Below, piece after piece: positions 7,212 to 47,338 of a DNA stretch of 64,000 bases. Location of the stretch: contig CAZVEX010000001.1 in assembly GCA_964625535.1 (NCBI GenBank), forward strand, positions 64,295-128,294, written 5' to 3'. A model generated the notes under the pieces. The model ran no database searches. It was not told the origin of the DNA and saw only the letters and a program-made list of their open reading frames with translations. Numbering within the stretch: position 1 is the stretch's first letter; every line of letters starts with the position of its first letter. The position numbers and the translations under genes were made by a program. This DNA comes from an uncultured Gammaproteobacteria bacterium. Its GTDB lineage: Bacteria; Patescibacteriota; Microgenomatia; Daviesbacterales; UBA10151.

Positions 7212-8459
7212 ATGCCAGTGAATAAAAAAGAGGTTATTAAGCTAGAAGTTTGCCGGGTGTGTGAAAGTAGAAATTTATTATTATTTCTTCAACTCGGGCC
7301 TACCCCTGTACCAAATGGATTTTTAAAAGCCCATCACCGTCACCGTGCAGAAAAATTCTATCCTCTGGATGTTTGTTTTTGCAAAAACTGCGGATTGGTA
7401 CAGTTGGCCCATGTAGTATCCCCTAAAGTTATGTTTAAAAATTATGTCTATATTCCTTCAACTTCCGAGACCATGCTTACTCATTTTGCTGCTTTAGCAA
7501 GGCAAGCAATTAAAAAATTAAATACTGAAGAGGGGGATCTGGTTTTGGATATCGGTTCAAACGATGGCACGCTTCTTAATTCCTTTAAAGCGCAAAAAAT
7601 GAGGATATTGGGGGTTGATCCTGCAGAGAACTTGGCCAAAAAAGCTAATCAGGACGGAGTTCAAACTATTTGCGCATTATTTACTAAAGAACTGGCTAAA
7701 GAAATACGTAAAAAAAATAAAGAAGCTAAAATTATTACTGCTACGAATGTGGTAGCTCATGTACATGATTTGGATAATTTCCTGGAAGGAATAAAAATTT
7801 TACTTTCAGATGATGGATTATTTATAAGTGAATTTCCCTATCTTCTAGATCTTCTTGAAAAGGTTGAGTTCGATACCATTTACCAGGAACATCTATCATA
7901 CTTTTCAATTTATCCCTTTGAAAAACTTCTTGTAAAACATGGCCTAACTTTAATTGATGTGCAAAGGGTTCCTGTCCATGGTGGTTCGGTGAGAGTATTT
8001 GTTAGCAAAAAACCCAGCAGTGTTAGCAGAAGAGTTAAAAAAATATTGCAACTTGAGAAAAAACGAGAGATCTTAAGTTCCCAGACATATTTAAAATTTA
8101 GGAAACAAGTGGATAGGGTAAGGCATGAATTAGTACAGCTTCTTTGGGGTCTGCGACTAAAAAATAAAAAGATTGTGGGTTACGGGGCATCCGCCAAAGG
8201 AAATATCATACTAAATTATTGCCGGATTGGTCCGGAAACGCTGGATTATATAGTGGACTCCATACCGTACAAGCAGGGAAAATATACCCCGGGGATGCAT
8301 ATTCCAATATATCCGGAGGCCAAGTTGTTGGAAGATATGCCGGATTATACGCTGCTTTTGGCATGGAATTTTGCAGACGAGATTATCAAAAAACAAGCCG
8401 AGTATCGCAAAAAGGGGGGAAAATTTATTCTGGCTATTCCAAAACTCGCAATTGTTTAG
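7212..8459 (+). CDS. SAM-dependent methyltransferase with N-terminal zinc ribbon and C-methyltransferase-type C-terminal domain (NDP-hexose C-methyltransferase/TylCIII-like architecture)
   Basis: CRVCES ... CKNCGLVQ Cys4 ribbon; SAM motif I LVLDIGSNDGTLL; long C-terminal domain typical of the sugar C-methyltransferase family. Confidence 0.65.
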   Translation: MPVNKKEVIKLEVCRVCESRNLLLFLQLGPTPVPNGFLKAHHRHRAEKFYPLDVCFCKNCGLVQLAHVVSPKVMFKNYVYIPSTSETMLTHFAALARQAIKKLNTEEGDLVLDIGSNDGTLLNSFKAQKMRILGVDPAENLAKKANQDGVQTICALFTKELAKEIRKKNKEAKIITATNVVAHVHDLDNFLEGIKILLSDDGLFISEFPYLLDLLEKVEFDTIYQEHLSYFSIYPFEKLLVKHGLTLIDVQRVPVHGGSVRVFVSKKPSSVSRRVKKILQLEKKREILSSQTYLKFRKQVDRVRHELVQLLWGLRLKNKKIVGYGASAKGNIILNYCRIGPETLDYIVDSIPYKQGKYTPGMHIPIYPEAKLLEDMPDYTLLLAWNFADEIIKKQAEYRKKGGKFILAIPKLAIV

Positions 8460-26534: not shown

Positions 26535-27992
26535 TTATGCAATTCTGGCAAGTTTAAATTCCCGGATTAATCTTTCAGGATCGTTTTCTCTAAAGTGCAT
26601 GGCTCTTCCTCCATATTCTGCTCTGAATGCTGTAGAATAATTTGCGTTATCATCAATAAATAAAACGCTTTGAAGGTTAGGATGACCTAATTGATCGAAC
26701 AAAAACTCGAAGGCAGGGCTGTCTTTTTCTCTTTTGGCAGCTCCAATTACAGAGGAAATTAGAATATTGCCTCTTTTTATTCCAGGGTAAAATCTTGTTA
26801 CTATATCCAAATTCGGATTGACTAAAGGAGGTATGGCGTCAGAAAGAACAAAAACCGAAATGTTAGGATTACCCAAAATTTTCCCAACTAACTCCGGCAT
26901 TCCGGGTGTCGGATAATAAACCTCTGGATGATTAAAATAACCTTCAGCTTCCTCCATGGAAGAAGGAAAATGCAGACCTAACGTTGCAAAAAATCTTCTT
27001 AAGTAATGCTCTTTTGATATTTTGCCGGGCATGCCATCATCTAGTGACTGTGAAATAGCTGTGGAAATTTCCTCGGGAGAACATTTCAGTGCCAAAGCCA
27101 TGGCTTGCCAAAGCGCGTCATCTGCAAAATTGGTTAGCACTCCGCCTATATCAAAAACCACGGTTTGTATAGGGGGTTTTCCCAGCACTCTGTCAACTGC
27201 CAGATCCAGAGTTTCTTGGGCTTGTTTTAGAGCTCGGAGATAGTCTTGATTTTCAGCTAGACTGAATTCTGTAAAAGCAGCCCGTAGGACCTCGTTAATA
27301 TCCGAAACACCGGCATTCGCTAACAGTTTTATTTCGTCAAATATTAAATCAATGGCAAGTTGCTGTTTACTTCCTTGGGTTAATGCCCTAAGTCCAAATC
27401 TTTCTGACGCGAAGACGCCCCCAGTATATCGACTTGCCTGGGATTCGTAGAGACCTTGTATTTGTGTTATTGAAAGCGGCGTGCCGTCAGGATTTAATTT
27501 ACCCATGTTATCCGAAAGATCCAAGATAGCTTGGGGAAGAGTTAAGTTGTCAATAGTCATTACTGCTTGTCCTCTACCCAAAATTTCGGGTATTGGAGGA
27601 TGTTTAGCTGCCAAACTCTGTCTTACTCCAATATTTCTACTAACAAGCCTGCCGGCAACATTTTTTCTGAAGTAGCGATGGGGTACTACCAAGCTTCCAA
27701 TATCGTCAATAAGCTGCAGGCTTTCTGCTTCATATGGAGATAAAGTATTTGAACCGACTTTCCGGGCGATGTGTCTTGCTAAAATCGAGCTGTAAACAAT
27801 GTGATCCCAGTAATCGGGGAATACTTTAGGGTGGACATAAGGCGCCGCCAATAACAGTGCTTGTCTTGTCTCTACGATATCGCTTTGCTGGAAAGGTCTT
27901 TCCTGAACCAATGCGGTATTTGCCAGATTATCCCTTAAAATTTCTACTATAATAGGTCCTCTGGTCTTAACATCGTTTCTTTCAATCTCCAT
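26535..27992 (-). CDS. Two-domain hydrolase: N-terminal HD-like domain (degenerate) fused to C-terminal HAD-superfamily hydrolase
   Basis: C-terminal VVFDIGGVLTNF (HAD motif I variant DxGG) ... ISVFVLSDA ... SVLFIDDNANY (motif IV); N-terminal DHIVYSSILARHIARKVG ... LQLIDDIGS; gene noticeably GC-richer than surroundings. Confidence 0.4.
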   Translation of the reverse strand: MEIERNDVKTRGPIIVEILRDNLANTALVQERPFQQSDIVETRQALLLAAPYVHPKVFPDYWDHIVYSSILARHIARKVGSNTLSPYEAESLQLIDDIGSLVVPHRYFRKNVAGRLVSRNIGVRQSLAAKHPPIPEILGRGQAVMTIDNLTLPQAILDLSDNMGKLNPDGTPLSITQIQGLYESQASRYTGGVFASERFGLRALTQGSKQQLAIDLIFDEIKLLANAGVSDINEVLRAAFTEFSLAENQDYLRALKQAQETLDLAVDRVLGKPPIQTVVFDIGGVLTNFADDALWQAMALALKCSPEEISTAISQSLDDGMPGKISKEHYLRRFFATLGLHFPSSMEEAEGYFNHPEVYYPTPGMPELVGKILGNPNISVFVLSDAIPPLVNPNLDIVTRFYPGIKRGNILISSVIGAAKREKDSPAFEFLFDQLGHPNLQSVLFIDDNANYSTAFRAEYGGRAMHFRENDPERLIREFKLARIA

Positions 27993-33152: not shown

Positions 33153-33815
33153 ATGAATAAAACAAAAAAGATAATCATACTTGGTACAGGCGGAACCTCA
33201 ATAGATATTTTAGATGTCGTTTACGACATTAATAAGTTTTACGGCAGTAAAATCTATCAGGTTCTGGGTTTTCTTGATGATGATAAGTCGAAGTTGAGTA
33301 GAGAGATAGATGGTATTAAAATACTGGGATCTCTTGCTTCTGCAAAAGACTATACGCAGGCTTTTTTTGTAAACGGCATTGGCAATCCAACAACTTTCTT
33401 TTTGAAAGAGAAAATAATTGCAAAGACAAATGTTTCTTTGGACCGATTTATTACACTGATACATCCGTCAGCAAATATTTCAAAATCTGCAGAAATTGGA
33501 TTAGGATCGGTTATATTTCAGAATGTTGTAGTTGGCTCTAATGCTAAAATAGGAAAGCATGTTGTAATTCTACCAAATACCGTAATAAGTCATGACGATA
33601 GAGTGGGAGATTATACTTGCATAGCGGGCTGTGTTTATATATCGGGTGCAGTGTCAATTGGTCAGACTTGCTATATTGGGGCGAATGCTTCTGTCAAAGA
33701 ATCTCTATCTATTGGCGAGGGTTCTCTTGTAGGGATGGGCAGCGTGGTAATAGTTAATGTTTCCAGTAGAAGTGTTTATGCCGGTAATCCCGCAAAATTC
33801 ATAAGAGGTTTGTAA
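33153..33815 (+). CDS. NeuD/PglD-family sugar acetyltransferase (N-terminal Rossmann-like + hexapeptide LbH)
   Basis: KKIIILGTGGTSIDILDVVYD ... VLGFLDDD then hexapeptide repeats IGSNAKIGKHVVILPNTVISHDDRVGDYTCIAGCVYISGAVSIG. Confidence 0.75.
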   Translation: MNKTKKIIILGTGGTSIDILDVVYDINKFYGSKIYQVLGFLDDDKSKLSREIDGIKILGSLASAKDYTQAFFVNGIGNPTTFFLKEKIIAKTNVSLDRFITLIHPSANISKSAEIGLGSVIFQNVVVGSNAKIGKHVVILPNTVISHDDRVGDYTCIAGCVYISGAVSIGQTCYIGANASVKESLSIGEGSLVGMGSVVIVNVSSRSVYAGNPAKFIRGL

Positions 33816-34369
33816 TGATCAAAAGTAATATCAGGAAAATTTTAAAAGAAATAAATTTGGTCTTATCAAAAATTGAGGAAGAAGAAGTTGATAAATTAGT
33901 TGATGAAATTGTAAAAGCGCAAAAAATTATTACTATTGGAGCCGGTCGGGTAGGACTTTCCGCAAGGGGGTTTGCAATGAGGTTGGGACATTTAGGTCTG
34001 TTGTCTTTTACTACCGCAGATACTACTATTCCGGCAATAGGGGAAAAGGATCTACTTATTGTTTGTTCCGGTTCGGGTGAAACCCAGGCTGTTTATGACT
34101 TGGCATTAATCGGTAAAAACCACAAGGTAAAAATTTGCGCAATCACGGCAAATCCCAAATCAAGGATTGGACAATTGGCTGATTTAATTGTTAGGATAAA
34201 ATCGCCGACAAAGTTGAAATCTTTAAATGGTTTTAAATCCATACAACCGATGACTACTTTAAATGAGCAATGCTTGATGATTTTTTTTGATTCATTAGTT
34301 TTGAAACTGATGAAAAAGTTGGGTGAGAACGATGAAAGTATGTGGAAGCGCCATTCCAATCTAGAATGA
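33815..34369 (+). CDS. SIS-domain sugar-phosphate isomerase (6-phospho-3-hexuloisomerase/PHI-like; GmhA/KdsD-like alternatives)
   Basis: ITIGAGRVGLSARGFAMRLGHLGLLS ... LLIVCSGSGET; 184 aa single SIS domain. Confidence 0.65.
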   Translation: MIKSNIRKILKEINLVLSKIEEEEVDKLVDEIVKAQKIITIGAGRVGLSARGFAMRLGHLGLLSFTTADTTIPAIGEKDLLIVCSGSGETQAVYDLALIGKNHKVKICAITANPKSRIGQLADLIVRIKSPTKLKSLNGFKSIQPMTTLNEQCLMIFFDSLVLKLMKKLGENDESMWKRHSNLE

Positions 34370-35037
34370 AATTTAAGTTATCGGCATCTTTAATTTGCGC
34401 AAAATTAATCGCTTTGAAGCAAGAGTTAAAGCTTCTGGAAAAAGGCGGAATTGACCGCATTCATTTTGATGTGATGGACGGGATATTTGTGCCAAGATAC
34501 GGTTTGCCTCCTGAAATATTAAAAGAAGTACACCAAGTTACCAATATCCCAGTTACTGTACATCTGATGGTTTCGGATCCTGAACCATATATTGAAGTTT
34601 TTGCTAAAGCCGGGGCAGATGCATTTGTTTTTCATATTGAACCGGTATTTCATGCAAACAGGGTTTTAAAAAAGGTTAAAGATGCCGGCATGAAAGCAGG
34701 AGTAGCTCTGAATCCGGCCACCTCTCTTGGAGTTTTAGATTATGTTTTGGAGGATTTGGATCTGGTAATGCTGATGGCTATAAACCCCGGTATTTTAGGC
34801 CATAAATTAATTCCCGGAATGCTTGCAAAAATTGCAGATTTAAAAAATAAATTAAAAAATTATCCCGATATCAAAATAGAAATTGACGGTGGGGTAACCT
34901 TTGAAAGCGCCCCCAGGATGATAAAAAACGGCGCAGATATCCTAGTCTGCGGCAATTCAACAATTTTTAAACCGGATGCGTTGGTAGATCAAAAGATTAA
35001 AGAATTAAGAAAAGCAATTGCTGATTCTTTAAATTAG
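34366..35037 (+). CDS. Ribulose-phosphate 3-epimerase-like (RPE family TIM barrel)
   Basis: Start at ATG 34366 (ATGA overlap with SIS gene); HFDVMDGIFVP, VTVHLMV, GVALNPATS, LMAINPGILG, IEIDGGV, VCGNSTIF match the RPE signature series. Confidence 0.7.
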   Translation: MKFKLSASLICAKLIALKQELKLLEKGGIDRIHFDVMDGIFVPRYGLPPEILKEVHQVTNIPVTVHLMVSDPEPYIEVFAKAGADAFVFHIEPVFHANRVLKKVKDAGMKAGVALNPATSLGVLDYVLEDLDLVMLMAINPGILGHKLIPGMLAKIADLKNKLKNYPDIKIEIDGGVTFESAPRMIKNGADILVCGNSTIFKPDALVDQKIKELRKAIADSLN

Positions 35038-35038
35038 C

Positions 35039-35578
35039 TTAAACTCTTTGGTACATATCAGCTATTCTACGAATATCAGCCTCATCAGATGGGTGGGTAG
35101 GATCTGTATGAATCCAAAGTTCTGCAAAAATAGCCCGTTGCTCCAAGCCAACCGGTCGATGGCGTGTTCCAACTGGTATATGAAAACACTCTCCACTTTG
35201 ATAAGTTTGGAGCTCTTGGGGTTGTACGTCAGTTATGCTTAAATAAAGACCTACCGGACCATCTATAACCCTATTAAACTCACCCCTTCTTTCGTGAACC
35301 TGCCATGATGTCATTTGTCCAGCTTCTACTACTGTAATTTTTGGGCTAACCGTTAAAACTGTAGGTATGGGTTCAGGGAGCGGTATGCCTCCAAAATAAG
35401 TTTCTATATATAAAACCCTACACCTATCTGCTATTCTATGAAATCCTCCCCAAGGTCTCCCAAAATCTGTTTCAATTATTTCCATGCCCTGTTCATGCAA
35501 AATTTCTTCCAGTCTTCGAGAAACTTCAATTTTCGCTAAACCTGGAGGAAAATCAAAAGGTTTTAATATTTCGCTCAT
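35039..35578 (-). CDS. Cupin-domain protein (mannose-6-phosphate-isomerase-type cupin?)
   Basis: SWQVHERRGEFNRVIDGPVGLYL ... GECFHIPVGTRHRP two-motif cupin; GC-richer than neighbours. Confidence 0.4.
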   Translation of the reverse strand: MSEILKPFDFPPGLAKIEVSRRLEEILHEQGMEIIETDFGRPWGGFHRIADRCRVLYIETYFGGIPLPEPIPTVLTVSPKITVVEAGQMTSWQVHERRGEFNRVIDGPVGLYLSITDVQPQELQTYQSGECFHIPVGTRHRPVGLEQRAIFAELWIHTDPTHPSDEADIRRIADMYQRV

Positions 35579-35640
35579 TTTGTTCCTAATTATACCACTT
35601 CTTGTTCAAAAATCAACTATGGGATAAAATCAGAAAATTA

Positions 35641-35649
35641 TGGTATAAT
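35641..35649 (+). promoter_or_regulatory. Extended -10 element TGGTATAAT ~11 nt upstream of PfkB kinase start codon (leaderless or near-leaderless transcript)
   Basis: TGGTATAAT at 35641-35649, ATG at 35660; no convincing -35. Confidence 0.35.
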
Positions 35650-35659
35650 CTTTCCTGCG

Positions 35660-36634
35660 ATGACAGAAATACCCATAATTACGATTGGCGAAATGGTTAT
35701 CGACATGATTCATGAAGGGGGAGACCCCCAAGTTTTAGGGGATAGATTTTTAGCTGTACCAGGCGGTGCTCCGGCAAATGTTGCAATTGGCGTTTCAAGA
35801 CTTGGAGTAACTGCAGGTTTTATAGGAATCGTTGGGAAAGATTATTTTGGAGATCAACTGGTACGTGTTTTAAGAGAAAACAGTGTTGACACAGGTAGTG
35901 TTTTTCAGGCTGATGATGGGAGAACTACTGAGGTTAAAATTTTCCCGGGGGATGATGGAAAGAAACAAATTGAGTATAGCGGGGCGCCTGCGCATAAGTT
36001 ATTAAGTCCGGAGCATATTATTCCGGATTACTTTAAAGGTGTTAAATTCTTACATTTTTGTTCGGTTAGCCTAGCGAAAGAACTTACATATCAGGCAACA
36101 ATGAAAGCAGTAAGAATAGCTCAAGAAAGGGGTGCGATAATTTCTTTTGATCCTAATCATCGTCCGCCTGCTTGGTCGGATCAAGAACTGGCTAGGCAAA
36201 GGATTTGGGAGGGGATTAGAAAAGCAGATATTATCAAAATAAGCGATGAAGAATTACCTTTCATTGCGGAAGATGATGATACTGAAAAAGGGGTTAATAA
36301 AATATTAGCCCATTCCGACGCCGAAATTGTAATTGCAACAATGGCAGAAAAAGGAGCTTACTATAAAACCAGGAGAGGATTCGAAGCATACATTCAGGGA
36401 TTTCAAGTAGAAGTGGTGGAAGTTACTGGTGCGGGGGATGCGTTTTCTGCCTCGGTATTAGCAGATATTCATAAAAGAGGAGTAACTGGGAATCTTCATA
36501 GTCTATCGGAAAATGATTGGAGAGGTGTTATTACCAGAGCTAATGGTGCGGGAGCGTTGGCTGTTACAAAAAGGGGAGCGATACCTGCTTTACCAACAGA
36601 AAAAGAGTTGAATGATTTTCTCAATAACAGGTGA
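35660..36634 (+). CDS. PfkB-family carbohydrate kinase (fructokinase-like)
   Basis: AVPGGAPANVAIGVSRLG; DPNHRP; anion-hole VTGAGDAFSASVL; 324 aa. Confidence 0.75.
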   Translation: MTEIPIITIGEMVIDMIHEGGDPQVLGDRFLAVPGGAPANVAIGVSRLGVTAGFIGIVGKDYFGDQLVRVLRENSVDTGSVFQADDGRTTEVKIFPGDDGKKQIEYSGAPAHKLLSPEHIIPDYFKGVKFLHFCSVSLAKELTYQATMKAVRIAQERGAIISFDPNHRPPAWSDQELARQRIWEGIRKADIIKISDEELPFIAEDDDTEKGVNKILAHSDAEIVIATMAEKGAYYKTRRGFEAYIQGFQVEVVEVTGAGDAFSASVLADIHKRGVTGNLHSLSENDWRGVITRANGAGALAVTKRGAIPALPTEKELNDFLNNR

Positions 36635-36648
36635 TAGAATAGGTTTAA

Positions 36649-38238
36649 ATGAATAAATACAAAGTTTTAATTACAACATCCGGTTTGGGGCAGAGATTGG
36701 GGGAGTTGACTCAATATACAAATAAGTCACTAATCAGAGTCGGTAAAAAACCTATCTTGTCTTACATCATTGAGGCCTATCCTAAAGATACCGAATTTGT
36801 TATCACTGTCGGATATTTCGCAGACCAGATTAAAGATTTTATTAAAATCGCCTATCCCAATTTAAAGGTTACTTTTGTTCCGGTTGATAAATATCAGGGG
36901 CCTGGGACCAGTTTGGGTTATTCCATGCTTCAGGCCAAAAAATATCTGCAGTGTCCCTTTATATTCCATTGTAACGATACCATAGTTTCGGAAACTATCC
37001 CTATTCCTGATAAAAATTGGAATGGAGGGTTTAAAGGAGATTCATCTGCCAACTATTCCACATTTTCCCTGTCAAAAGACAAGGTGGGGTTAATAAACGA
37101 CAAAGGCGCGCTTGATTTTGACTTTATTCATATCGGACTTGTGGGTATTAAAGACTATGAATCGTTTTGGTACAACCTTGAATCATTAATTTTGGGTTCT
37201 TTATATAAGGATCTCCAAGATACTTCTTTAAATGATTGCAAGGTGATAAATTTAATGATCGGACAGGGTAAGGATTTTGTTGTTGAGGAGTTTACCAGCT
37301 GGTTAGATACGGGTAATGCTGATGGATTAAACAAAGCAAGAGAAAAGCTGTCAGACGGTTTTTATAATCTGGATAAATCGGGAGAATCTATTTTCATTTT
37401 TCCTAAATTTGTTATCAAATTTTATTTTGATAAAGAGTTAGTTGAAAAAAAGATTAAAAGGGCAAAAGTCCTAAAAGGTTTAGTTCCGGATATTGAGAAA
37501 TCAGTTGGTAATTTCTTTAGATATAAGTATATAGAAGGAGATCTTTATTCAGGAAGCGTCACAGTTTCGGATTTTGAAAAATTCCTCAACTGGTGTAAGA
37601 AAAATTTGTGGATTAAGAAAAATATTTTACCGGATAAAAAATTCAGGGAGCTTTGCGGCAATTTTTATATAGACAAAACAAAACAAAGGGTTCAGAAATT
37701 CTTAGAAATTACTAAAGTCGAAGATAAAGAGGAGATTATTAACGGAGATAAAGTGCCTTCTGTTACCGGGATGCTCAAAGAAATTGATTTTGCCTGGCTT
37801 TCCGCAGGAATTCAAAGCCTTATGCATGGAGATTTAGTTTTGGAAAATATTATCAAGACAAAGAGCGGTTATCAACTGCTTGACTGGAGGCAGGATTTTG
37901 GAGGAAATCTGGAAATCGGCGATATGTATTATGATTTAGCAAATTTAAATAAGAACTTTACGCTCAATCATGAATTAGTTGATAAGGGACACTTTATTGT
38001 TGAAAACAAAAGTAAGGATGTAAAGTGTGATATCCTGGAAAGCCATAATCTGGTTGAATGTCAGCAGATTTTGTGGCGTTTTATTCAAAAAGAAGGACTT
38101 GATCTTAAAAAAGTAAAAGTTTTAACAGCTCTCAAATGGCTTTCTATGTCCCCTTTGCACCCAACCCCTGTAAATTTTAATTTATTCCTTTATTATTTTG
38201 GAAAACTAAATTTATTTAGAGCGCTCAAACAAGAATGA
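36649..38238 (+). CDS. Bifunctional activation enzyme: N-terminal sugar-/aminoalcohol-phosphate nucleotidyltransferase fused to C-terminal APH/choline-kinase-fold kinase
   Basis: N-term VLITTSGLGQRLGELTQYTNKSLIRVGKKPIL (RmlA/GlmU-like G-x-G-x-R-L); C-term Brenner/APH motifs HGDLVLENII and LDWRQDFGGNLEIGDMYYDLA. Confidence 0.65.
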   Translation: MNKYKVLITTSGLGQRLGELTQYTNKSLIRVGKKPILSYIIEAYPKDTEFVITVGYFADQIKDFIKIAYPNLKVTFVPVDKYQGPGTSLGYSMLQAKKYLQCPFIFHCNDTIVSETIPIPDKNWNGGFKGDSSANYSTFSLSKDKVGLINDKGALDFDFIHIGLVGIKDYESFWYNLESLILGSLYKDLQDTSLNDCKVINLMIGQGKDFVVEEFTSWLDTGNADGLNKAREKLSDGFYNLDKSGESIFIFPKFVIKFYFDKELVEKKIKRAKVLKGLVPDIEKSVGNFFRYKYIEGDLYSGSVTVSDFEKFLNWCKKNLWIKKNILPDKKFRELCGNFYIDKTKQRVQKFLEITKVEDKEEIINGDKVPSVTGMLKEIDFAWLSAGIQSLMHGDLVLENIIKTKSGYQLLDWRQDFGGNLEIGDMYYDLANLNKNFTLNHELVDKGHFIVENKSKDVKCDILESHNLVECQQILWRFIQKEGLDLKKVKVLTALKWLSMSPLHPTPVNFNLFLYYFGKLNLFRALKQE

Positions 38239-38750
38239 AAAATTTTATCATTGATGTTGACGGATGTTTAACAACCGGACAATTTTTTTATTCCGCAAAA
38301 GGGAAAATTTATAAGGTTTTCGGGCCGGATGACGCGGATGCTTTATCAATTTTAAAAAGTAAAATTTATATTCACATGATTTCCGGCGATAAAAGAGGAT
38401 ACCCTATTACCAAGAAAAGAATTGAAGATATGAAATTTCCCTTAAATTTAGTAAGCACCTTCGAGAGACTAAAATGGATAGAAGGGAGATTTGATTTAAA
38501 AGAGACAATTTATATGGGTGACGGTATTTACGATGCACTGGTGTTTGAGAAGGTTGGTTACAGCATTGCCCCGGCCAACGCTTTTTTTATTGCCAAACAA
38601 AAGGCTGATTTTGTAACACAAGCTAAAGGTGGGGAAGGAGCTGTAGCCGAGGCCTGCTTGCATATCATGGAAAAATTCTTTGAACCGTTTGATTTATCGA
38701 AGATAGATTTATCTTCTGGTTCAGGAGCTTGGGATAATCTTAAAGTCTAG
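38235..38750 (+). CDS. HAD-IIIA phosphatase, KdsC/GmhB-like sugar-phosphate phosphatase
   Basis: FIIDVDGCLTTG (DxDG motif I), IHMISGDKRG, YMGDGIYDAL, VTQAKGGEGAVAEAC matches the KdsC family closely; 171 aa; ATGA overlap with upstream gene. Confidence 0.7.
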   Translation: MKNFIIDVDGCLTTGQFFYSAKGKIYKVFGPDDADALSILKSKIYIHMISGDKRGYPITKKRIEDMKFPLNLVSTFERLKWIEGRFDLKETIYMGDGIYDALVFEKVGYSIAPANAFFIAKQKADFVTQAKGGEGAVAEACLHIMEKFFEPFDLSKIDLSSGSGAWDNLKV

Positions 38751-39767: not shown

Positions 39768-40547
39768 ATGAAAGTTATTATTCTTTGTGGTGGTGCAGGC
39801 ACAAGATTAAAAGAAGAAACAGAATTCAAGCCAAAACCCATGGTGTATGTTGGAAACCAGCCTATCATATGGCATATCATGAAAATTTATTCTCACTTCG
39901 GATTCAACGAATTTATTCTGGCGTTAGGATATAAAGCAGAATACATTAAGGATTTTTTTCTTAACCAGAAAGCATTAACATCTGATTTTACTCTGAATAC
40001 CTCAAATTACAAAACAATTTATCACACAGATAGTAGAAAAAATCCAGATCATTTTAAAATTACATTTGTTGATACAGGTGTAGAAACTTTAATTGGAGAA
40101 CGAATCTTAATGTGCAAAAAGTACATTCCCGTTAAAGACAAATTATTTATGGTTACTTATGGTGATGGAGTTGCAAATGTAAATATTAAGGAAATTATTA
40201 GATTCCATAAGAAAAAAAAGACACTAGGTACAATAACCGGTGTTCATCCAAGATCAAAGTTTGGTCTTATTAAATTGGAAAAAGGTGGACTTGTTAAATC
40301 ATTCGTAGAAAAACCAGTATTGAATGATTGGGTAAACGGTGGCTTTATGGTTTTTAATAAGAAATTTTTTGATTTTATAAACCCCGGTGAGATGGAACAT
40401 GAGGCACTCAAAAGGATTGCTACAAAAAACGGTCTGGCCCTTTATAAACATAAAGGTTTTTGGTTTGCAGTTGATACTTATAGGGAACTTGAAGAGTTAA
40501 ATAAAATATGGGAAAGCGGTAATCCTCCCTGGAAAATATGGACATGA
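39768..40547 (+). CDS. rfbF: Glucose-1-phosphate cytidylyltransferase (RfbF/DdhA)
   Basis: MKVIILCGGAGTRLKEETEFKPKPMVYVGNQPIIWHIMKIYSHFGFNEFILALGYKAEYIKDFF is the characteristic RfbF N-terminus; 259 aa. Confidence 0.85.
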   Translation: MKVIILCGGAGTRLKEETEFKPKPMVYVGNQPIIWHIMKIYSHFGFNEFILALGYKAEYIKDFFLNQKALTSDFTLNTSNYKTIYHTDSRKNPDHFKITFVDTGVETLIGERILMCKKYIPVKDKLFMVTYGDGVANVNIKEIIRFHKKKKTLGTITGVHPRSKFGLIKLEKGGLVKSFVEKPVLNDWVNGGFMVFNKKFFDFINPGEMEHEALKRIATKNGLALYKHKGFWFAVDTYRELEELNKIWESGNPPWKIWT

Positions 40548-41572
40548 GAAGAATTTTAGTAACCGGCTCGGATGGTTATATTGGAGCGGTTCTGATTAAT
40601 AAATTATTGGAAAAAGGATATGAAGTTACAGGCTTAGATACTCTTTTCTTTAAGAACTCAGTTCTAGGTAATTATAATCCCAAATATAGACTCATAAAAT
40701 CAGATATACGGCAAATTCAAAATATAAATTTGTCTAAATTTGATGCAATAATCCACCTTGCAGCTTTATCAAATGACCCAATGGGTGAGATAGACCCGGA
40801 TCTGACAGAAGAAATAAATTACAGGGCAACTATAAAACTTGCAAAAAAGGCCAAAAAAGATCGAGTCAAAAGATTCATTTTTTCTTCATCCTGTAGCATT
40901 TATGGTAAATCTGAACAGGAAATAGTTGATGAAAATTCCAATATCAATCCTTTGACTGCTTATGCAAAATCTAAAATTGATTCGGAGAATGAGCTAAAAA
41001 AACTTGCAGATAAAAATTTCTGTGTATGTTTACCTCGGAACTCAACTGTCTATGGATATTCTCCAAAATTTAGGGATGATTTAGTAGTTAATAATCTTAT
41101 AACCCCTGCAATAGCTCTAAAAAAAATTTTTGTCAAAAGCGATGGGAGTCCTTGGCGTCCTCTTATTGACGTTAGGGATCTTGCTAATATTTTTATAAAT
41201 TTTTTAGAGATAGATAGTTATTTAGTAAATGGGCAGGTAATTAATATTGGCTTTAATGATAGTAATTATCAAGTTAATGATATTTTAAAAATAATTAAGG
41301 AACAGGTTCCTCAATGTGAAGTTATTTATACCGGTGAACATAGAGCTGATACAAGAAGCTACAGAGTTTCTTTCGATAAATTTATTTCACTTTTTCCTAA
41401 TATTAGACGGGAATGGCCATTACAAAAATCAACAAGAGATTTAATTGATAAATTAGAAAAATCAATGTTTAATGAGAAAGATTTAAATTCAAATAAATAC
41501 TCCAGAATAGAGGTTTTAAAAAGATTAATCTCGGATAAGAAAGTGGATAAAAAACTTTTTTGGATTCATTAA
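40538..41572 (+). CDS. CDP-glucose 4,6-dehydratase-like extended SDR (RfbG/DdhB-like)
   Basis: ILVTGSDGYIGAVLINKLLEKGYEVTGLD; Y-x3-K YAKSKIDSE; directly downstream of rfbF with 10-nt overlap. Confidence 0.65.
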   Translation: MDMRRILVTGSDGYIGAVLINKLLEKGYEVTGLDTLFFKNSVLGNYNPKYRLIKSDIRQIQNINLSKFDAIIHLAALSNDPMGEIDPDLTEEINYRATIKLAKKAKKDRVKRFIFSSSCSIYGKSEQEIVDENSNINPLTAYAKSKIDSENELKKLADKNFCVCLPRNSTVYGYSPKFRDDLVVNNLITPAIALKKIFVKSDGSPWRPLIDVRDLANIFINFLEIDSYLVNGQVINIGFNDSNYQVNDILKIIKEQVPQCEVIYTGEHRADTRSYRVSFDKFISLFPNIRREWPLQKSTRDLIDKLEKSMFNEKDLNSNKYSRIEVLKRLISDKKVDKKLFWIH

Positions 41573-42502
41573 ATGAATATTTTAATAACCGGCGGGACAG
41601 GCTTCATCGGTAGTCATCTTACCTTTAGACTGTTATCTTTGGGGCATAAAATAACCGTCTTAAAAAGACCAACATCAGATATCTGGCGAATAAAAGAAAT
41701 TGCCAGAAAAATAAATATTATAGATCTTGAATCTTTTAAAAATCTAGAATCTGTATTTATAAATAACAACCTCGATACAGTTATTCACTTGGCAACTGCA
41801 TATATAAAACATTCTGACAGGAGAAAAGAAATTAATCAAATGAAAAATACAAACATAACTTTCCCGTCTTTGCTGCTTAATTTTGCCATTAAAAATAAAG
41901 TTAAATATTTTATTAACACAGGCACTTGTTTTGAATACAAGCTCTCAGATACAAAAATAGATGAAAATCATAAAATATCCCCATATAATTTTTATGCCTC
42001 TACAAAAATAGCTTTTGAAGTCCTACTTAAATCTTTTGTAGAAAAAAATTACATCAGAGGAATTACCCTGAAATTATTTTACCCATATGGAGAAAAGGAT
42101 AACAATAAGGTGATTCCTCTAATGATTAAAGCTATTTTAAAAAAAGAGAAATTAAACTTAACTAAAGGTGAGCAAGAATTGGACTTTACCTATGTTGATG
42201 ATATTGTGGAGGCTTACATAAAAGCTCTTAGCTTTATTTCTTCAATAAAATATAAAAAGTATGAAGTTTTTAATATTGGAACAGATGAAGTATATAAACT
42301 AAAAAATATCGGTAAACTGTTAGAGAATTTGAGTGGAAATTATAAAAGTTTAAATTTTTCTAACCCCTATCCTTTAGATGAAATAATGTATATGTCTTGC
42401 AATTATAAAAAGGCAATGAAATTATTGAATTGGAAACCCGAAACAAGTATAATAAACGGAATAACAAAGACCTATGAGTCTTATTTAGAAAGCCTGAAAT
42501 GA
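41573..42502 (+). CDS. SDR nucleotide-sugar reductase/epimerase (CDP-paratose/abequose-synthase-like position)
   Basis: ILITGGTGFIGSHLTFRL; Y-x3-K YASTKIAFE; start codon abuts upstream stop. Confidence 0.65.
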   Translation: MNILITGGTGFIGSHLTFRLLSLGHKITVLKRPTSDIWRIKEIARKINIIDLESFKNLESVFINNNLDTVIHLATAYIKHSDRRKEINQMKNTNITFPSLLLNFAIKNKVKYFINTGTCFEYKLSDTKIDENHKISPYNFYASTKIAFEVLLKSFVEKNYIRGITLKLFYPYGEKDNNKVIPLMIKAILKKEKLNLTKGEQELDFTYVDDIVEAYIKALSFISSIKYKKYEVFNIGTDEVYKLKNIGKLLENLSGNYKSLNFSNPYPLDEIMYMSCNYKKAMKLLNWKPETSIINGITKTYESYLESLK

Positions 42503-42951
42503 TCGATGGAGTAAAAATCAAAAATTTAAAGAAAATCCCTGATGAAAGAGGAACTGTAATGCATATGCTAAGAAGTGATGATCCTGAATTTAAAAAATTT
42601 GGGGAAATTTATTTTACCACAGCTTACCCGCAAGTGATAAAAGGTTGGCATCTTCATTCCAAAATGACTTTAAACTATGTGGTAATTTCAGGAATGATAA
42701 AACTTGTTTTATACGATGACAGAAAGGAGTCAAAAACTAAAGGGGAAATAATGGAGTTATTTTTAGGTGAAGATAATTATTCCTTGGTCACAATACCACC
42801 TCTTGTTTGGAATGGATTTAAGGTTATTGGAGGTAAAACCGCAATTTTGGCAAATTGTCCGGATTTACCGCATGATCCTAAAGAGATGAAGAGATTGGAT
42901 CCATTAAAGAATAGCGTTATTCCCTATAATTGGGGCATTAAGCTAAAATAA
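42499..42951 (+). CDS. Small cupin nucleotide-sugar epimerase/ketoisomerase (RmlC/FdtA-like)
   Basis: 150 aa; GEIYFTTAYPQVIKGWHLHSKMTLNYVVISGMIKLVLYDD cupin core; 4-nt overlap with upstream SDR. Confidence 0.55.
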   Translation: MIDGVKIKNLKKIPDERGTVMHMLRSDDPEFKKFGEIYFTTAYPQVIKGWHLHSKMTLNYVVISGMIKLVLYDDRKESKTKGEIMELFLGEDNYSLVTIPPLVWNGFKVIGGKTAILANCPDLPHDPKEMKRLDPLKNSVIPYNWGIKLK

Positions 42952-42952
42952 T

Positions 42953-44182
42953 ATGCGCTCAAAATCCCCAAAAGATGATTTACGGGTTAGCTATGCTAAA
43001 GCCGTACATGGCGAGGCGGAGAAAAAAAGAGTAATAGCTGTTCTGGATGAGCACAGAACAATAATGGGTCAAGAAATTAATGAATTTGAAGAAAGAGTAA
43101 GTAAGTTTTTCGGTCGCAAATACGGAGTAATGATTAATTCAGGTTCCTCTGCAAATTTACTTGCCCTAGAAATTCTAAATTTTCCCGAAGGTTCTGAAAT
43201 AATTACCCCTCTTTTAACATTCTCAACAACTGTTGCTCCAATTGTACAAAAAAAACTTATACCGGTCTTTGCTGATGTTGAAAATGGAAGCTATCAAATA
43301 AATGTGGATCAAATTGAGAAACTAGTTACCATAAAAACTAGAGCCTTAATGATTCCTCTTCTTTTAGGAAATGTTCCTGATCTTGAAAGATTACATCATC
43401 TTGCCAGAAAGAAAAAGTTAATTCTGATAGAAGATTCTTGTGATACATTTGCAGCAATTTTTAATGGTAAACCAACCAGTAGTTTTAGCGATATTACAAC
43501 AACCAGTTTTTATGGTTCACATATAATAACTGCGGGGGGAGGAGGAGGGATGATTATGATGGATAATATGAAATGGAGAGATAAGGCTAAAGTTTTTAGA
43601 GGATGGGGTAGAAGTTCTTCTATATTTGGTGAATCAGAAAGTATTGCAATCCGCTTTAAAGCAAAAATTGGAAATATTCCATATGATGCTAAGTTTGTTT
43701 TTAGTGAACCTGGCTATAATTTTTTACCCATAGAGATGTGTGCCGCATTTGGTAATGCTCAACTAGATAAAATAAAGGACTTTAGAAAATTGCGTGAATA
43801 TAATTTTAAAAGACTATATATTTTTTTTAGAAAATATTCGAACTTTTTTGAATTACCCATACAAGATAAAAGGGTAAAAACTTGGTGGCTTTCGTTTCCT
43901 CTAACAATAAAACCAAACGCTCCGTTCACCAGAATTGAAATTATGACATATTTGGAGAAAAATAATATACAAACAAGGCCAATTTTCACGGGAAATGTAT
44001 TAAAACAACCGGGATTTAAAAAAATTCCTCACAGATTGCTTGCCGGATATGATTACCCGATTACTAATGAGATAATGAAGCAAGGGTTTGTTATAGGTTG
44101 TCATCATGGTTTGACAGATAAACATCTTGAAAAGATTGAGCGAATTTTTACGCTATTTTTAAATGAATGTGTTTCATTTTGA
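42953..44182 (+). CDS. DegT-family enzyme with His replacing PLP Lys: predicted PMP-dependent 4-keto-6-deoxy-sugar 3-dehydratase (E1/DdhC/ColD-like)
   Basis: TTSFYGSHIITAGGGGGM aligns to canonical SF(H/Y)xxKxx...GEGG with K->H as in ColD/E1; last gene of rfbF-led operon. Confidence 0.6.
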   Translation: MRSKSPKDDLRVSYAKAVHGEAEKKRVIAVLDEHRTIMGQEINEFEERVSKFFGRKYGVMINSGSSANLLALEILNFPEGSEIITPLLTFSTTVAPIVQKKLIPVFADVENGSYQINVDQIEKLVTIKTRALMIPLLLGNVPDLERLHHLARKKKLILIEDSCDTFAAIFNGKPTSSFSDITTTSFYGSHIITAGGGGGMIMMDNMKWRDKAKVFRGWGRSSSIFGESESIAIRFKAKIGNIPYDAKFVFSEPGYNFLPIEMCAAFGNAQLDKIKDFRKLREYNFKRLYIFFRKYSNFFELPIQDKRVKTWWLSFPLTIKPNAPFTRIEIMTYLEKNNIQTRPIFTGNVLKQPGFKKIPHRLLAGYDYPITNEIMKQGFVIGCHHGLTDKHLEKIERIFTLFLNECVSF

Positions 44183-44879: not shown

Positions 44880-46646
44880 ATGATTACTGTTGGTTTTTAT
44901 AAGGGACATAATGCTACTGCCTGTATATTAAAGGATGGCAAAATAATTGCTGCAGTCTCTGAAGAGAGATTTAATCGGATCAAAAATGCCGACGTTTTTC
45001 CTATTGAGGCAATCAAGTTTTGTTTGAGGCAGGCAAACGTTAAAGCGCAGGATGTAGATTATTATGTCAGGACATATACGCATCCGGAGGGATTTGTCGC
45101 CTCATCCCGTGAAACAAGAATGCCGATGCTTATCCAACTATTAACTTATCTTTTAGTGTTTGCAAGAAAATTACTACTTATCTTTCCGCCTCTGATCTCT
45201 TTAGGCAGATTTTTACATGAGCTTATTTATACAAAGACTTTAACCCCTTGGTATCAAAATCAGTTTAGAAAAACTATGTCAGAATATTTGAAAATTGACA
45301 AAAATAAAATAATTTTTGCTGATCATCACACATGTCATGCGTATGCTGTATACTACGGATTTGTACCAGAGGAAAAACAAAATGAAGATTGGTTAGTGAT
45401 TACTTTAGATGGAGCAGGAGATGGGGACTGTGGAGGTGTTTGGGCAGTTGAGGATGGTAAGTGGAGCAGACTAGCTAAAACGCCGGCAGGCTCATCCATT
45501 GCGCTTTTTTATGGAATGATCACAAGATATTTAGGGATGAAGTTGAATGAGCATGAGTATAAAGTAATGGGTCTTGCCCCATATGTTTCTTCTCATGAAA
45601 TTTCCAAAGTTTATTCTTTATTTGAGGGATTATTTAGGACTGATGAAAATTTGGTTATGCATTCAAAGATTCTGTCTGGAGCACTTCTTGATTACTTTGA
45701 TACCATTTTAAGGCATAAACGCTTTGATGGTATAGCTGGTGCTGCCCAAAAGTATGTAGAAGATGTAGTTTCGGATTTAGTAGTAAAAGCTATTAAAAAA
45801 AGTGGTATAAAAAACCTAGCAGTTGCGGGAGGGTTTTTTATGAATGTAAAAGCTAATAAAAAGATTGCGGAACTCAAAGAAATTGGAGAGTTTATTCCCT
45901 GTCCTACCGCATCTGATGAGTCAACTGTTTTCGGAGCAGCATTCTTCGGATATGAGCTGCTATGCAAGCAAACAGATAAACCTTTCTCAACTGAGAATAT
46001 TAAGACTCTTTATCTGGGTCCAAAATTTTCAGATGCGGAGATAAGTGAAGTACTAAAGAAAAATAAACATTTACAAAGATATAGAGTTAAGAAATTTAAA
46101 GATATAGAGAAAAAGATAGCCTCACTTTTAGTAAAAGGTAAGATAGTCGGTAGATTTAAGGATAAAATGGAATGGGGAGCGAGAGCCTTGGGTAATAGAT
46201 CTATCTTTATGGATCCACGACGTAAGGATCTAATTATGAAATTAAATGAACAAATAAAATCCCGGGATTTTTGGATGCCTTTTGCAGCAAGCATTTTGGA
46301 TACTTGTGAAGAAAAATATATTGTAAACAGCAAAGGCATTAACGGCGAATTCATGATTTTAGGTTTTGATACAACTCGTAGGGGGAAGTCTGACTTGGCT
46401 GCTGCGATCCATCCCTACGATTTTACATGCAGGCCTCAAATTGTAAAAAAAGAGGCCAATCCTGATTATTACAACTTAATTAAATATTTTGAACAGGGAA
46501 CAGGAGTAGGTGCGATTTTAAACACATCTTTCAACCTGCACGGTGAGCCGATTGTTTGTGTCCCGCAGGATGCGATTAGTACCTTTGAAAGATGTGATCT
46601 AGAGTATTTAGCATTAGGAAGTTACCTGGTATGGAAAAAAAGATGA
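44880..46646 (+). CDS. NodU/CmcH-family O-carbamoyltransferase
   Basis: MITVGFYKGHNATACILKDGKIIAAVSEERFNRIKNADVFP is the hallmark N-terminus (Kae1/YgjD-like fold); 588 aa typical length. Confidence 0.85.
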   Translation: MITVGFYKGHNATACILKDGKIIAAVSEERFNRIKNADVFPIEAIKFCLRQANVKAQDVDYYVRTYTHPEGFVASSRETRMPMLIQLLTYLLVFARKLLLIFPPLISLGRFLHELIYTKTLTPWYQNQFRKTMSEYLKIDKNKIIFADHHTCHAYAVYYGFVPEEKQNEDWLVITLDGAGDGDCGGVWAVEDGKWSRLAKTPAGSSIALFYGMITRYLGMKLNEHEYKVMGLAPYVSSHEISKVYSLFEGLFRTDENLVMHSKILSGALLDYFDTILRHKRFDGIAGAAQKYVEDVVSDLVVKAIKKSGIKNLAVAGGFFMNVKANKKIAELKEIGEFIPCPTASDESTVFGAAFFGYELLCKQTDKPFSTENIKTLYLGPKFSDAEISEVLKKNKHLQRYRVKKFKDIEKKIASLLVKGKIVGRFKDKMEWGARALGNRSIFMDPRRKDLIMKLNEQIKSRDFWMPFAASILDTCEEKYIVNSKGINGEFMILGFDTTRRGKSDLAAAIHPYDFTCRPQIVKKEANPDYYNLIKYFEQGTGVGAILNTSFNLHGEPIVCVPQDAISTFERCDLEYLALGSYLVWKKR

Positions 46647-47338
46647 TTAAATTTTCAAAGAAATATAATTTATTTTTAACCTTCTTATTTTATGCATATG
46701 GCTTCTTAAATTCTTTGCTATTCAAGTTTCAACTTTCAGTAATTTATTATCATTACGAGAAAAAGATTTTAAACTTAATTAATAATCTTCGTTCAAGTGG
46801 AGACTTACTTCTTACAGTTGTAGAAAGCCTACAAGTGTATGAATGCGCGAGAAGTGCACAAAAAATAAAAGGGGATTTTGCAGAAGTTGGAGTTTATAGA
46901 GGAGGGAGTGCTGTAATCATTTCAGAGGTCAAAAAAGGAAAGAAGTTCCATCTTTTTGATACTTTTGAAGGGTTGCCTGATAATGAGAAAATAGATTCAC
47001 TTGTTGGGGATAATTCAATGGTAAGCAATCTGGATGAAGTGAAAAGTAAATTAAAAAGATACAAGAATGTCTATTTTTATAAAGGTTTATTTCCAAAAAC
47101 CGGGAATAAAATAAAAAAAGATAAATTTGCATTTGTGCATCTGGATGTTGATTTATACAGAAGTACAATCAATAGTTTAAAATTTTTCTACCCTAAAATG
47201 AGCAAAGGAGGAATCATACTTTCACATGATTATCCCTTTATGCCGGGAGTAAAAAGAGCTTTTGATGAGTTTTTTGAAAATAGAAGGGAATTAGTTTTAA
47301 AGCTTTCAGGAAATCAAGCTATTGTAATTAAAATATAA
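46643..47338 (+). CDS. TylF/MycF-family sugar O-methyltransferase
   Basis: GDFAEVGVYRGGSAVIISEV, FDTFEGLP, HLDVDLYRST, SKGGIILSHDY match the macrocin-O-MTase family; start at 46643 (ATGA overlap) or 46631. Confidence 0.75.
   Translation: MIKFSKKYNLFLTFLFYAYGFLNSLLFKFQLSVIYYHYEKKILNLINNLRSSGDLLLTVVESLQVYECARSAQKIKGDFAEVGVYRGGSAVIISEVKKGKKFHLFDTFEGLPDNEKIDSLVGDNSMVSNLDEVKSKLKRYKNVYFYKGLFPKTGNKIKKDKFAFVHLDVDLYRSTINSLKFFYPKMSKGGIILSHDYPFMPGVKRAFDEFFENRRELVLKLSGNQAIVIKI

Follow-up and report, generated by a model that had tools for sequence, protein, structure and literature searches.

A conserved four-gene cassette around a nucleotidyltransferase/kinase fusion in surface-glycan loci of CPR bacteria: a candidate pathway to a nucleotide-activated rare sugar

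Several described pathways resemble parts of the gene cluster analysed here. In the pathway to nucleoside diphosphate (NDP)-D-glycero-D-manno-heptose, a SIS isomerase acts on a ketose phosphate (sedoheptulose-7-phosphate), a kinase phosphorylates C1, the distal phosphate is cleaved off by a HAD phosphatase, and a nucleotidyltransferase (NT) produces the activated sugar, with a kinase-NT fusion in HldE. A kinase and an NT also activate sugars in the AmgK/MurU, NahK and Bacteroides FKP systems, which are salvage routes without phosphatase or isomerase, and LicC/LicA and LicCA combine an NT with a following domain of the aminoglycoside phosphotransferase (APH)/choline-kinase fold. 6-Phospho-3-hexuloisomerase (PHI; HxlB), a family with fructose-6-phosphate (F6P) as its defined substrate, has as its universal partner hexulose-6-phosphate synthase (HPS; HxlA) in the ribulose monophosphate (RuMP) pathway of formaldehyde fixation and pentose synthesis. 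Members of the ribulose-5-phosphate (Ru5P) epimerase (RPE) family convert F6P to rare ketohexose derivatives, as the D-allulose-6-phosphate 3-epimerases AlsE (allose catabolism) and AgmD (angustmycin) do; in the angustmycin pathway AgmD starts the route from F6P, anomeric activation follows, and a HAD enzyme removes the 6-phosphate (PMC8599513). Finally, GatZ and KbaZ have been shown experimentally to be C4 epimerases that convert F6P to tagatose-6-phosphate (PMC11907403). Here we describe a gene cassette centred on a 529-aa NT/APH-fold kinase fusion, termed NTK, found in a 64-kb stretch of contig CAZVEX010000001.1 (positions 64,295 to 128,294; hereafter the window, meaning the whole stretch analysed), and compare it with related loci, about 90 overall.

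The SIS, RPE, NTK and HAD genes form a conserved, co-inherited and sometimes fused four-gene cassette in glycan loci. In the window all four lie on the plus strand and encode a PHI-type SIS isomerase of 184 aa (33815..34369), an RPE-family epimerase of 223 aa from the ATG at 34366 (34366..35037), NTK (36649..38238) and a KdsC/YrbI-like HAD phosphatase with a C0 cap, of 171 aa (38235..38750). A sequence-only reading of this DNA had described these genes, together with that of a fructokinase-like PfkB kinase of 324 aa (35660..36634, plus strand), as a run of five. The ORF listing and direct reading recover all five ORFs, with ATGA start/stop overlaps between SIS and RPE (34366-34369) and between NTK and HAD (38235-38238). 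The motifs quoted at the time are all in the translations (GAGRVGLSARGFAMRLGHLG for SIS, DPNHRP and GAGD for PfkB, HGDLVLENII and LDWRQD for NTK, DVDGCLTTG and GGEGAVAEAC for HAD), and profile and fold searches agree with the family calls of a PHI-like SIS protein, an RPE barrel, a PfkB kinase, an NT fused to an APH-fold kinase and a KdsC-like HAD. The genes are thus real, but the run is interrupted by a minus-strand cupin gene that had been overlooked (35039..35578); likewise, the comparison of related loci retains SIS, RPE, NTK and HAD as a unit, but not PfkB. The broader proposal of a sugar-activation module with a link to nucleotide sugars is borne out by cross-phylum synteny and gene fusions, which show that the four proteins work together. 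Judging from sequence, we consider it roughly 60% probable that the cassette is a de novo pathway dedicated to supplying the surface-glycan locus around it with a nucleotide-activated rare sugar.

The comparison draws on the 64-kb window and on 10-kb flanks for the related loci. Neighbour counts refer to 82 loci, comprising those of two fused homologues (L001-L002) and those from one scan of species-representative genomes (L003-L082), while co-occurrence counts refer to the 53 loci, the window among them, that extend for 3 kb or more on each side; the loci are mostly derived from metagenome-assembled genomes (MAGs), and the taxonomic labels of some are doubtful. NTK has more than 1,190 homologues, which are 52-57% identical across Candidate Phyla Radiation (CPR) phyla, most of them in CPR and a sporadic remainder in DPANN, Bacteroidota, Chlamydiota and Proteobacteria, and the cassette system amounts to more than 1,000 clusters at 90% identity. 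Both the closest named NTK homologue (81% identical) and the closest syntenic locus (L004; 90%) belong to Candidatus Daviesbacteria (Microgenomates, CPR). The genome-scan loci are mostly from CPR bacteria, and also from DPANN archaea, Bacteroidota (Sediminibacterium, Pedobacter, Chitinophagia) and Chlamydiota; further loci of the scan are from Arcobacter, Desulfatibia, Paraglaciecola, SAR86, a Lachnospiraceae MAG and the isolate Aliiglaciecola lipolytica E3. It should also be noted that contigs L003, L005, L006, L019, L021, L031, L032 and others are labelled 'uncultured Gammaproteobacteria' or 'Bdellovibrionales'; they have CPR-typical gene content and NTK 50-81% identical, and the labels on these CPR-like MAG contigs are probably wrong.

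When the 82 loci were searched by tblastn with the window proteins, HAD was found beside NTK in about 72, RPE in 52 and SIS in 48. The gene order is almost always SIS, RPE, NTK, HAD, with SIS directly upstream of RPE-NTK in 48 of the 82. HAD is fused to the C-terminus of NTK in two proteins (P0115, 702 aa; P0062, 701 aa), NTK is fused to a bicupin in another (P0056, 816 aa), and a second NT paralogue is fused to a PHI-type SIS domain at L044:835-2094 (419 aa). The recurrent neighbours in 83 loci are HAD, SIS, RPE, an aldolase-like protein, a cupin, methyltransferases and glycosyltransferases (GT2, GT1-like); in the compared loci, the context of NTK always includes glycosyltransferase, methyltransferase and flippase genes. 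One may ask whether housekeeping PHI, RPE and fructokinase genes simply came to lie beside an unrelated NT/kinase gene by chance. All three are central-metabolism families, and relatives of the window's cupin normally lie elsewhere in operons of central sugar metabolism (with PGM/PMM, PfkB, IMPase, PGI, PPDK and enolase), as this explanation would expect. Against it stand the same gene order in 48-52 loci of many phyla, the ATGA overlaps, the fusions and an RPE subfamily specific to the module. Because of the synteny and fusion data, chance juxtaposition is effectively refuted for SIS, RPE, NTK and HAD; for the cupin and PfkB it is partly true, and as an account of the whole it is extremely improbable.

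In about one third of the loci, SIS and RPE are both missing, and two other genes, c9 and c8, are in their place. The c9 proteins (330-400 aa) are GatZ/KbaZ- or class II aldolase-like (PF08013, PF01116; nearest Protein Data Bank (PDB) entries 3txv and 2fiq), the similarity to GatZ being remote (33-36 bits). c8 is a cupin of 115 aa that matches the phosphomannose isomerase (PMI) domain of bifunctional GMP/PMI enzymes (TIGR01479 positions 352-467). Among the 53 loci, 35 carry SIS/RPE, 17 carry c9 with or without c8, one carries neither, and none carries both stand-alone sets. In a neighbour-joining tree built from 78 NTK sequences (without support values), loci of the two states are interleaved, and the window's NTK clade, for example, is sister to the c8/c9 loci L018 and L038. 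Since the sets are mutually exclusive and interleaved in this way, they appear related by non-orthologous displacement, which indicates that two enzyme sets predicted from sequence would feed the same downstream machinery; a GatZ/KbaZ relative that replaces SIS and RPE beside NTK, elsewhere than in the window, suggests an equivalent role. Two exceptions are instructive: L002 has SIS and RPE and, as a fusion to NTK, a true orthologue of c8 (E 3e-33), and the Saccharibacteria MAG loci L036 and L039 have c9 without c8. In the latter two, the minimal set comprises an NT paralogue, NTK and c9, with no c8 and no HAD within the fetched flanks.

A further recurrent family of 280-400 aa, c6, is exemplified by L040:6292-7434, L001:5855-6739 and L042:8423-9637. 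Its members share a conserved E-D-H motif, no Pfam or NCBIfam model matches them, and the longer variant has a c8-related cupin at its end (hhalign 95.9%). Kinship of the N-terminal domain of c6 with the aldolase-like c9 was considered and rejected (hhalign probability 0.2%). The c6 ORFs of L023 (585 aa) and L082 (508 aa) cover the coordinates of the SIS tblastn match, which suggests a c6-SIS fusion in these two loci; c6 is probably another enzyme of the pathway.

The two genes that separate RPE from NTK in the window vary between loci. PfkB (PF00294, 170 bits) has as its best model by far the fructokinase NF006957 (227 bits, cutoff 450), compared with 59 bits for the kinase domain of HldE (rfaE_dom_I, cutoff 345). 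An orthologue 77% identical sits between RPE and NTK in L088/L089 (NTK 66% identical), in which the cupin is absent; its other homologues are about 40% identical and are named 'fructokinase' by their sources. PfkB is absent from all other compared loci. In L004, which is otherwise perfectly syntenic with the window from the PMT-like gene through RfbF, and in L003 (NTK 81% identical), RPE is followed directly by NTK, without PfkB or cupin. Hence, being present in L088/L089 and absent from L004 and L003, PfkB is a recurrent accessory of one sublineage and no core member. The NeuD/PglD-type sugar N-acetyltransferase gene upstream of SIS (33153..33815, plus strand; TIGR03570, 183.7 bits, cutoff 160.8) also lies outside the conserved cassette, and among the compared loci it is shared by L004 and L088 only.

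The minus-strand gene encodes a cupin of 179 aa resembling type II mannose-6-phosphate isomerase. It is convergent with RPE (1-nt gap) and divergent from PfkB across 81 bp, and it is absent at the equivalent position in L004, L003 and L088. Its 38 database homologues reach 56% identity and mostly carry PF01050. By profile comparison it is related to c8, the cupin associated with NTK elsewhere (hhalign 98.6% probability, E 8e-16); BLAST against the fused cupin of P0056 gave no significant match, the relationship being visible only by profile comparison. The possibility that cupin and PfkB entered as one window-specific insertion was rejected, given the 77% identical PfkB in the same place in L088/L089 and the kinship of the cupin with c8. 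By their families, both accessories would make or interconvert F6P: PfkB could have been added in the window's lineage as a feeder that phosphorylates fructose to F6P, and the cupin could serve as another, by interconverting mannose-6-phosphate and F6P or by a further aldose/ketose isomerisation. The spacer between the two genes (35579-35659) contains a sigma-70-like site with an extended -10 element on the minus strand (35616-35589), which would drive the cupin gene; over the window, promoter and terminator sites were no more numerous than in shuffled sequences.

The SIS protein clearly groups with PHI, a question that the sequence-only reading had left between PHI, GmhA and KdsD. It scores 186.3 bits against TIGR03127 (RuMP_HxlB), over the cutoff of 160, versus 16.4 bits for GmhA (cutoff 265) and 32 bits for KdsD. 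It also matches Bacillus subtilis YckF/HxlB (PDB 1m3s) with 144 bits, shows 33-43% identity, and retains the GAGR, SGSGET, QPM..L.EQ and HxNLE motifs. By these measures it is a bona fide member of the 6-phospho-3-hexuloisomerase family, with that activity predicted. Unlike HxlB of the RuMP pathway, it stands in a glycan context, away from formaldehyde fixation and pentose synthesis, and an RPE-family epimerase takes the place of HPS. HPS turned up neither in the module of the window nor among the neighbours that recur in related loci, HxlA models giving 15.8 bits at most, on the RPE-like protein.

The RPE-family protein (PF00834, 203 bits) has the catalytic His/Asp/His/Asp set and the Met cushion. 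It scores 152 bits against solved RPE, 208.2 against the Ru5P-epimerase equivalog TIGR01163 (just under its cutoff of 212.6) and 172.8 against the AlsE model NF007266 (cutoff 271). Two loops are altered, with FVPR for the canonical FVPN and PGI[VL]GHK for the phosphate-loop PGFGGQ, and these changes are kept in about 48 copies of the module. A metagenome scan with the RPE alignment, which mostly returned ordinary RPEs through the generic HxDVMDG pattern, provides a control set: 78 environmental RPEs without the module keep FVPN and GFGGQ, while the one module-type RPE recovered (L091) again has SIS upstream and NTK downstream. The AlsE clade is marked by S52, Y134, T142 and D147 (PMC12216980); the module protein keeps the N of INPG and has no equivalents of T142 and D147. 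Taken together, these features define what from sequence looks to be a separate, module-specific subfamily with altered substrate and phosphate loops, found only beside the module. The earlier idea that RPE merely supplies precursors finds no support here.

The same data bear on a pentose version of the pathway, in which a Ru5P/xylulose-5-phosphate epimerase would be followed by SIS conversion of a pentulose-5-phosphate to an aldopentose-5-phosphate, leading to an NDP-pentofuranose (D-arabino-, xylo- or lyxofuranose, for example) or to activated xylulose. A score so close to the Ru5P cutoff, the match to solved RPE and the complete catalytic set would fit, and a 5-phosphate forces the furanose ring, which would account for a kinase/phosphatase route. 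We nevertheless regard this version as unlikely. The SIS protein belongs with PHI, an enzyme of hexuloses, and does not resemble KdsD or RpiB; the displacing enzyme elsewhere resembles GatZ/KbaZ, a hexulose-6-phosphate epimerase family (PMC11907403); the window's fructokinase- and PMI-like accessories suggest a hexose; and in the module RPE both the canonical GFGGQ phosphate loop and FVPN have been lost.

Four independent hints, namely the PHI substrate, the GatZ/KbaZ reaction, the fructokinase-like PfkB and the PMI-like cupin, point to F6P as the entry metabolite. They weigh in turn against an NDP-heptose type of pathway, a possibility raised in the sequence-only reading. In such a pathway sedoheptulose-7-phosphate, possibly 3-epimerised, would become a heptose-7-phosphate, be phosphorylated at C1, dephosphorylated at C7 and joined to a nucleotide. 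The logic is indeed identical to that of GmhA, HddA or HldE, GmhB and HddC, and all four activity classes are co-localised. The proteins are not those of the heptose pathway, however. SIS scores 186 bits for PHI against 16 for GmhA, and the NT domain gives 25.7 bits against HddC (cutoff 300). HAD has KdsC/YrbI TIGR01670 as its best model (76 bits, under the cutoff of 106.95), ahead of NF007019 (60.8 bits, cutoff 208), with Aq2171 (2p9j) and KdsC as the nearest PDB entries, and only 21 bits for the generic HAD-IIIA model, so that it is KdsC-like and not GmhB. The conserved kinase has the APH fold and is neither a PfkB nor a GHMP kinase, while the PfkB present is fructokinase-like and dispensable; RPE is an extra component. 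A heptose product is therefore very unlikely. What survives of the proposal is the phosphate-repositioning logic, which, by analogy, the cassette would carry out with non-homologous enzymes (including a LicC/MurU-like NT) and with F6P as the likely substrate in place of sedoheptulose-7-phosphate. Neither the module nor the set of neighbours that recur in related loci showed a KdsA- or KdsB-type gene.

NTK consists of an NT domain (residues 1 to about 235; 36649..37353) and an APH/choline-kinase-fold domain (about 236-529; 37354..38238), with weak profile matches for both. The AlphaFold models are confident, with a pLDDT of 86.5 for the full-length protein and 84.5 for the C-terminal domain. 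The fold search with the full-length protein was dominated by the NT domain, and the kinase domain was modelled and searched separately. In an alignment of 18 diverse homologues the NT signature G12xG14xR16L17...K26 is invariant, as are the kinase loop H393-G-D395-x4-N400 and the metal-binding D412 of 'LDWR'. Both domains thus look catalytically competent as judged from conserved residues, and a kinase domain without catalytic residues, which the sequence-only reading had named as grounds for abandoning its interpretation, is not what is found. The nearest solved structure to the NT domain is LicC, both by profile (1jyk, E 3.6e-8) and by Foldseek (E 9.5e-13, TM-score to target 0.81, 22% identity), with IPCT, MurU, GalU and RmlA close behind (E around 1e-12). 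The kinase domain has no preferred relative. In the fold comparison APH(4)-Ia and maltokinase score 15.7 each, followed by LicA (15.0), MTR kinase (14.4), fructosamine-3-kinase (13.9), glucosamine kinase (13.6) and NahK (12.3), and Foldseek agrees; a specific relationship to NahK or AmgK, also proposed, is not seen. Neither domain can be placed in the LicC/LicA, MurU/AmgK or NahK families.

Two further explanations turn on these relationships. In a LicCA-like system, NTK would phosphorylate and cytidylylate choline or another amino alcohol or polyol, so that the glycan would carry a phospho-substituent, and the sugar-phosphate genes would be mere neighbours. LicC is the best solved match for the NT domain, choline/ethanolamine kinases including LicA are among the top fold matches of the kinase domain, and the order of NT and kinase is the same. 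This resemblance stays at the level of the fold (22% and 17% identity), no curated LicA or LicC model matches at E up to 0.01, and among the annotated recurrent-neighbour clusters of the 83 loci there is neither a LicB nor a LicD family. Moreover, the obligatory partners of NTK, with which it is co-inherited or fused, are a sugar-phosphate phosphatase, a PHI-type isomerase and PMI-type cupins, all superfluous for amino alcohols. We consider this explanation, which the sequence-only reading had raised, highly improbable. That reading had also suggested salvage of the AmgK/MurU or NahK type. In salvage of this kind, or of the FKP kind, a free environmental sugar would be phosphorylated at the anomeric position and then nucleotidylated, the phosphatase and isomerases serving other purposes. 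An anomeric-type kinase with an NT is the expected architecture, FKP has the same NT-then-kinase order, MurU and NahK are among the fold matches, and CPR bacteria are scavengers. Nevertheless, the kinase of FKP has the GHMP fold, the MurU equivalog NF045761 gives 21 bits (cutoff 250) and NF045697 gives 16 bits (cutoff 370), and the near-universal linkage to a phosphatase and to isomerase/epimerase genes, which salvage leaves unexplained, favours de novo supply from a phosphorylated central metabolite; salvage is thus decidedly improbable. Apart from these considerations, a second, stand-alone NT paralogue (232-285 aa) lies beside NTK in many loci (L012, L015, L022, L025, L027, L030-L032, L035, L036, L039, L042, L047, L048, L054 and L058); it may handle a second nucleotide or act as a regulatory subunit.

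The de novo pathway to a nucleotide-activated rare sugar can be outlined as follows. Starting from F6P, SIS and RPE would produce a rare ketohexose- or hexose-6-phosphate; the kinase domain of NTK would phosphorylate another position, most likely the anomeric hydroxyl; HAD would take off the 6-phosphate, either before or after the kinase step; and the NT domain would join the sugar phosphate to a nucleoside triphosphate, giving an NDP-sugar for the neighbouring glycosyltransferases. Candidate sugars are tagato-, talo-, psico-, allo- or altro-configured. In its use of an RPE-family enzyme on F6P the scheme recalls AlsE and AgmD; unlike these, the module RPE lacks the AlsE signature, and a kinase and an NT stand where angustmycin biosynthesis has a pyrophosphokinase.

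As to which rare sugar, we tentatively propose, by analogy and as a possibility still on the unlikely side, that PHI and the module RPE constitute a two-enzyme route for C4 epimerisation of F6P to D-tagatose-6-phosphate. PHI would first convert F6P to D-arabino-3-hexulose-6-phosphate, RPE would then invert C4, which lies beside the 3-keto group on the phosphate side, and PHI would convert the product back to a 2-ketose, D-tagatose-6-phosphate. D-arabino-3-hexulose-6-phosphate is Ru5P lengthened by one carbon at the carbonyl side. The carbon to be inverted stands to the phosphate as C3 does in Ru5P. From the product, NTK and HAD would make a nucleotide-activated sugar, namely tagatose or, in loci with a PMI-like cupin, talose. 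The net reaction would be that of the GatZ/KbaZ-like enzyme replacing SIS and RPE elsewhere. By family precedent, SIS and RPE yield ketose phosphates only, c9 and c8 yield tagatose-6-phosphate and its aldose isomers, and tagatose-6-phosphate would be the sole product common to both sets. Such a route would explain the pairing of an RPE-like protein with a PHI and not with an aldose-ketose SIS isomerase, the ability of a GatZ-like protein to stand in for the two, and the occurrence of c9 without c8 and of c8 as an addition to SIS and RPE. An AlsE-like route from F6P through psicose-6-phosphate to allose- or altrose-6-phosphate would be simpler, and we hold it to be about equally likely. We know of no nucleotide-linked ketohexose donor described for bacterial glycans.

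Several observations weigh against the rare-sugar pathway as outlined. By family precedent, PHI interconverts 2- and 3-ketoses and gives no aldoses, so that no enzyme accounts for the step to a free-C1 aldose in most SIS/RPE loci. By the simplest chemistry, SIS/RPE and c9/c8 would yield different sugars. The closeness of RPE to the cutoff for true Ru5P epimerases (208 versus 212.6 bits) is compatible with a pentose substrate. The closest solved relatives of the NT domain, LicC and IPCT, act on non-anomeric phospho-alcohols, and the activated product could be a phosphodiester-type donor instead of a glycosyl donor. In addition, the ORF families come from single-linkage clustering, and the neighbour-joining tree of NTK carries no support values.

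Kinase, phosphatase and NT are a known strategy for making nucleotide sugars; what is new here is its assembly from unprecedented parts. As had been suspected, the enzyme types occur together in no described pathway, and the searchable literature yielded no account of either the cassette or the NT/APH fusion. Few uncharacterised sugar-activation systems seen in CPR/Patescibacteria are as widespread as the cassette, which recurs in DPANN archaea and, in scattered fashion, in other bacteria; given this recurrence and the more than 1,000 clusters, it probably defines a common surface-sugar residue of CPR episymbionts. With its solution would come the chemical identity of a building block of CPR glycans, a new bifunctional kinase/nucleotidyltransferase of use in chemo-enzymatic synthesis of NDP-sugars, new roles for the PHI and RPE families beyond formaldehyde and pentose metabolism, and possibly an account of the way in which ketoses or rare hexoses become activated for transfer to glycans. 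The system is experimentally tractable, as the isolate A. lipolytica E3 carries a sister version. For reconstructions of reduced genomes, a caution follows: PHI and RPE genes of this module should not be counted as RuMP or pentose-phosphate capacity.

According to profile searches, the window as a whole is one large surface-glycan locus, with GT2 and GT4 glycosyltransferases, DegT aminotransferases, SDR epimerases, NeuD-type acetyltransferases, a CDP-hexose pathway, TylF-type methyltransferases and a carbamoyltransferase. Searches for RNA genes with Rfam and tRNA scans were negative over the window. The CDP-hexose-type pathway directly follows the cassette (39768-44182, plus strand) and comprises an RfbF-like glucose-1-phosphate cytidylyltransferase (276 bits), two SDR dehydratase/epimerases, an RmlC-like cupin and a DegT/RfbH-like pyridoxal phosphate enzyme, pointing to a second donor for this glycan, a (di)deoxyhexose. 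Methyltransferases accompany the cassette elsewhere: TylF-type O-methyltransferases are frequent neighbours of NTK, and a methyltransferase of about 380 aa with a weak C-methyltransferase C-terminus (for example L067:5526-6665; L017:6644-7783, minus strand) follows HAD or NTK in 33 of the 53 loci, with both front ends. The latter has no close counterpart in the window, the sole match being 25% identical at 7344-7958. The window does have a NodU/CmcH-type carbamoyltransferase (44880-46646, plus strand) and a TylF-type O-methyltransferase (46631-47338, plus strand), the latter 49% identical to the TylF genes that accompany NTK in other loci; carbamoyl and O-methyl groups are probably present on the glycan. 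Finally, four large ORFs of 485-765 aa (17743-19662, plus strand; 19645-21480, 21414-23711 and 26535-27992, minus strand) have no Pfam match at E up to 1e-4 and may encode membrane proteins of the polymerase/ligase type or other novel proteins.

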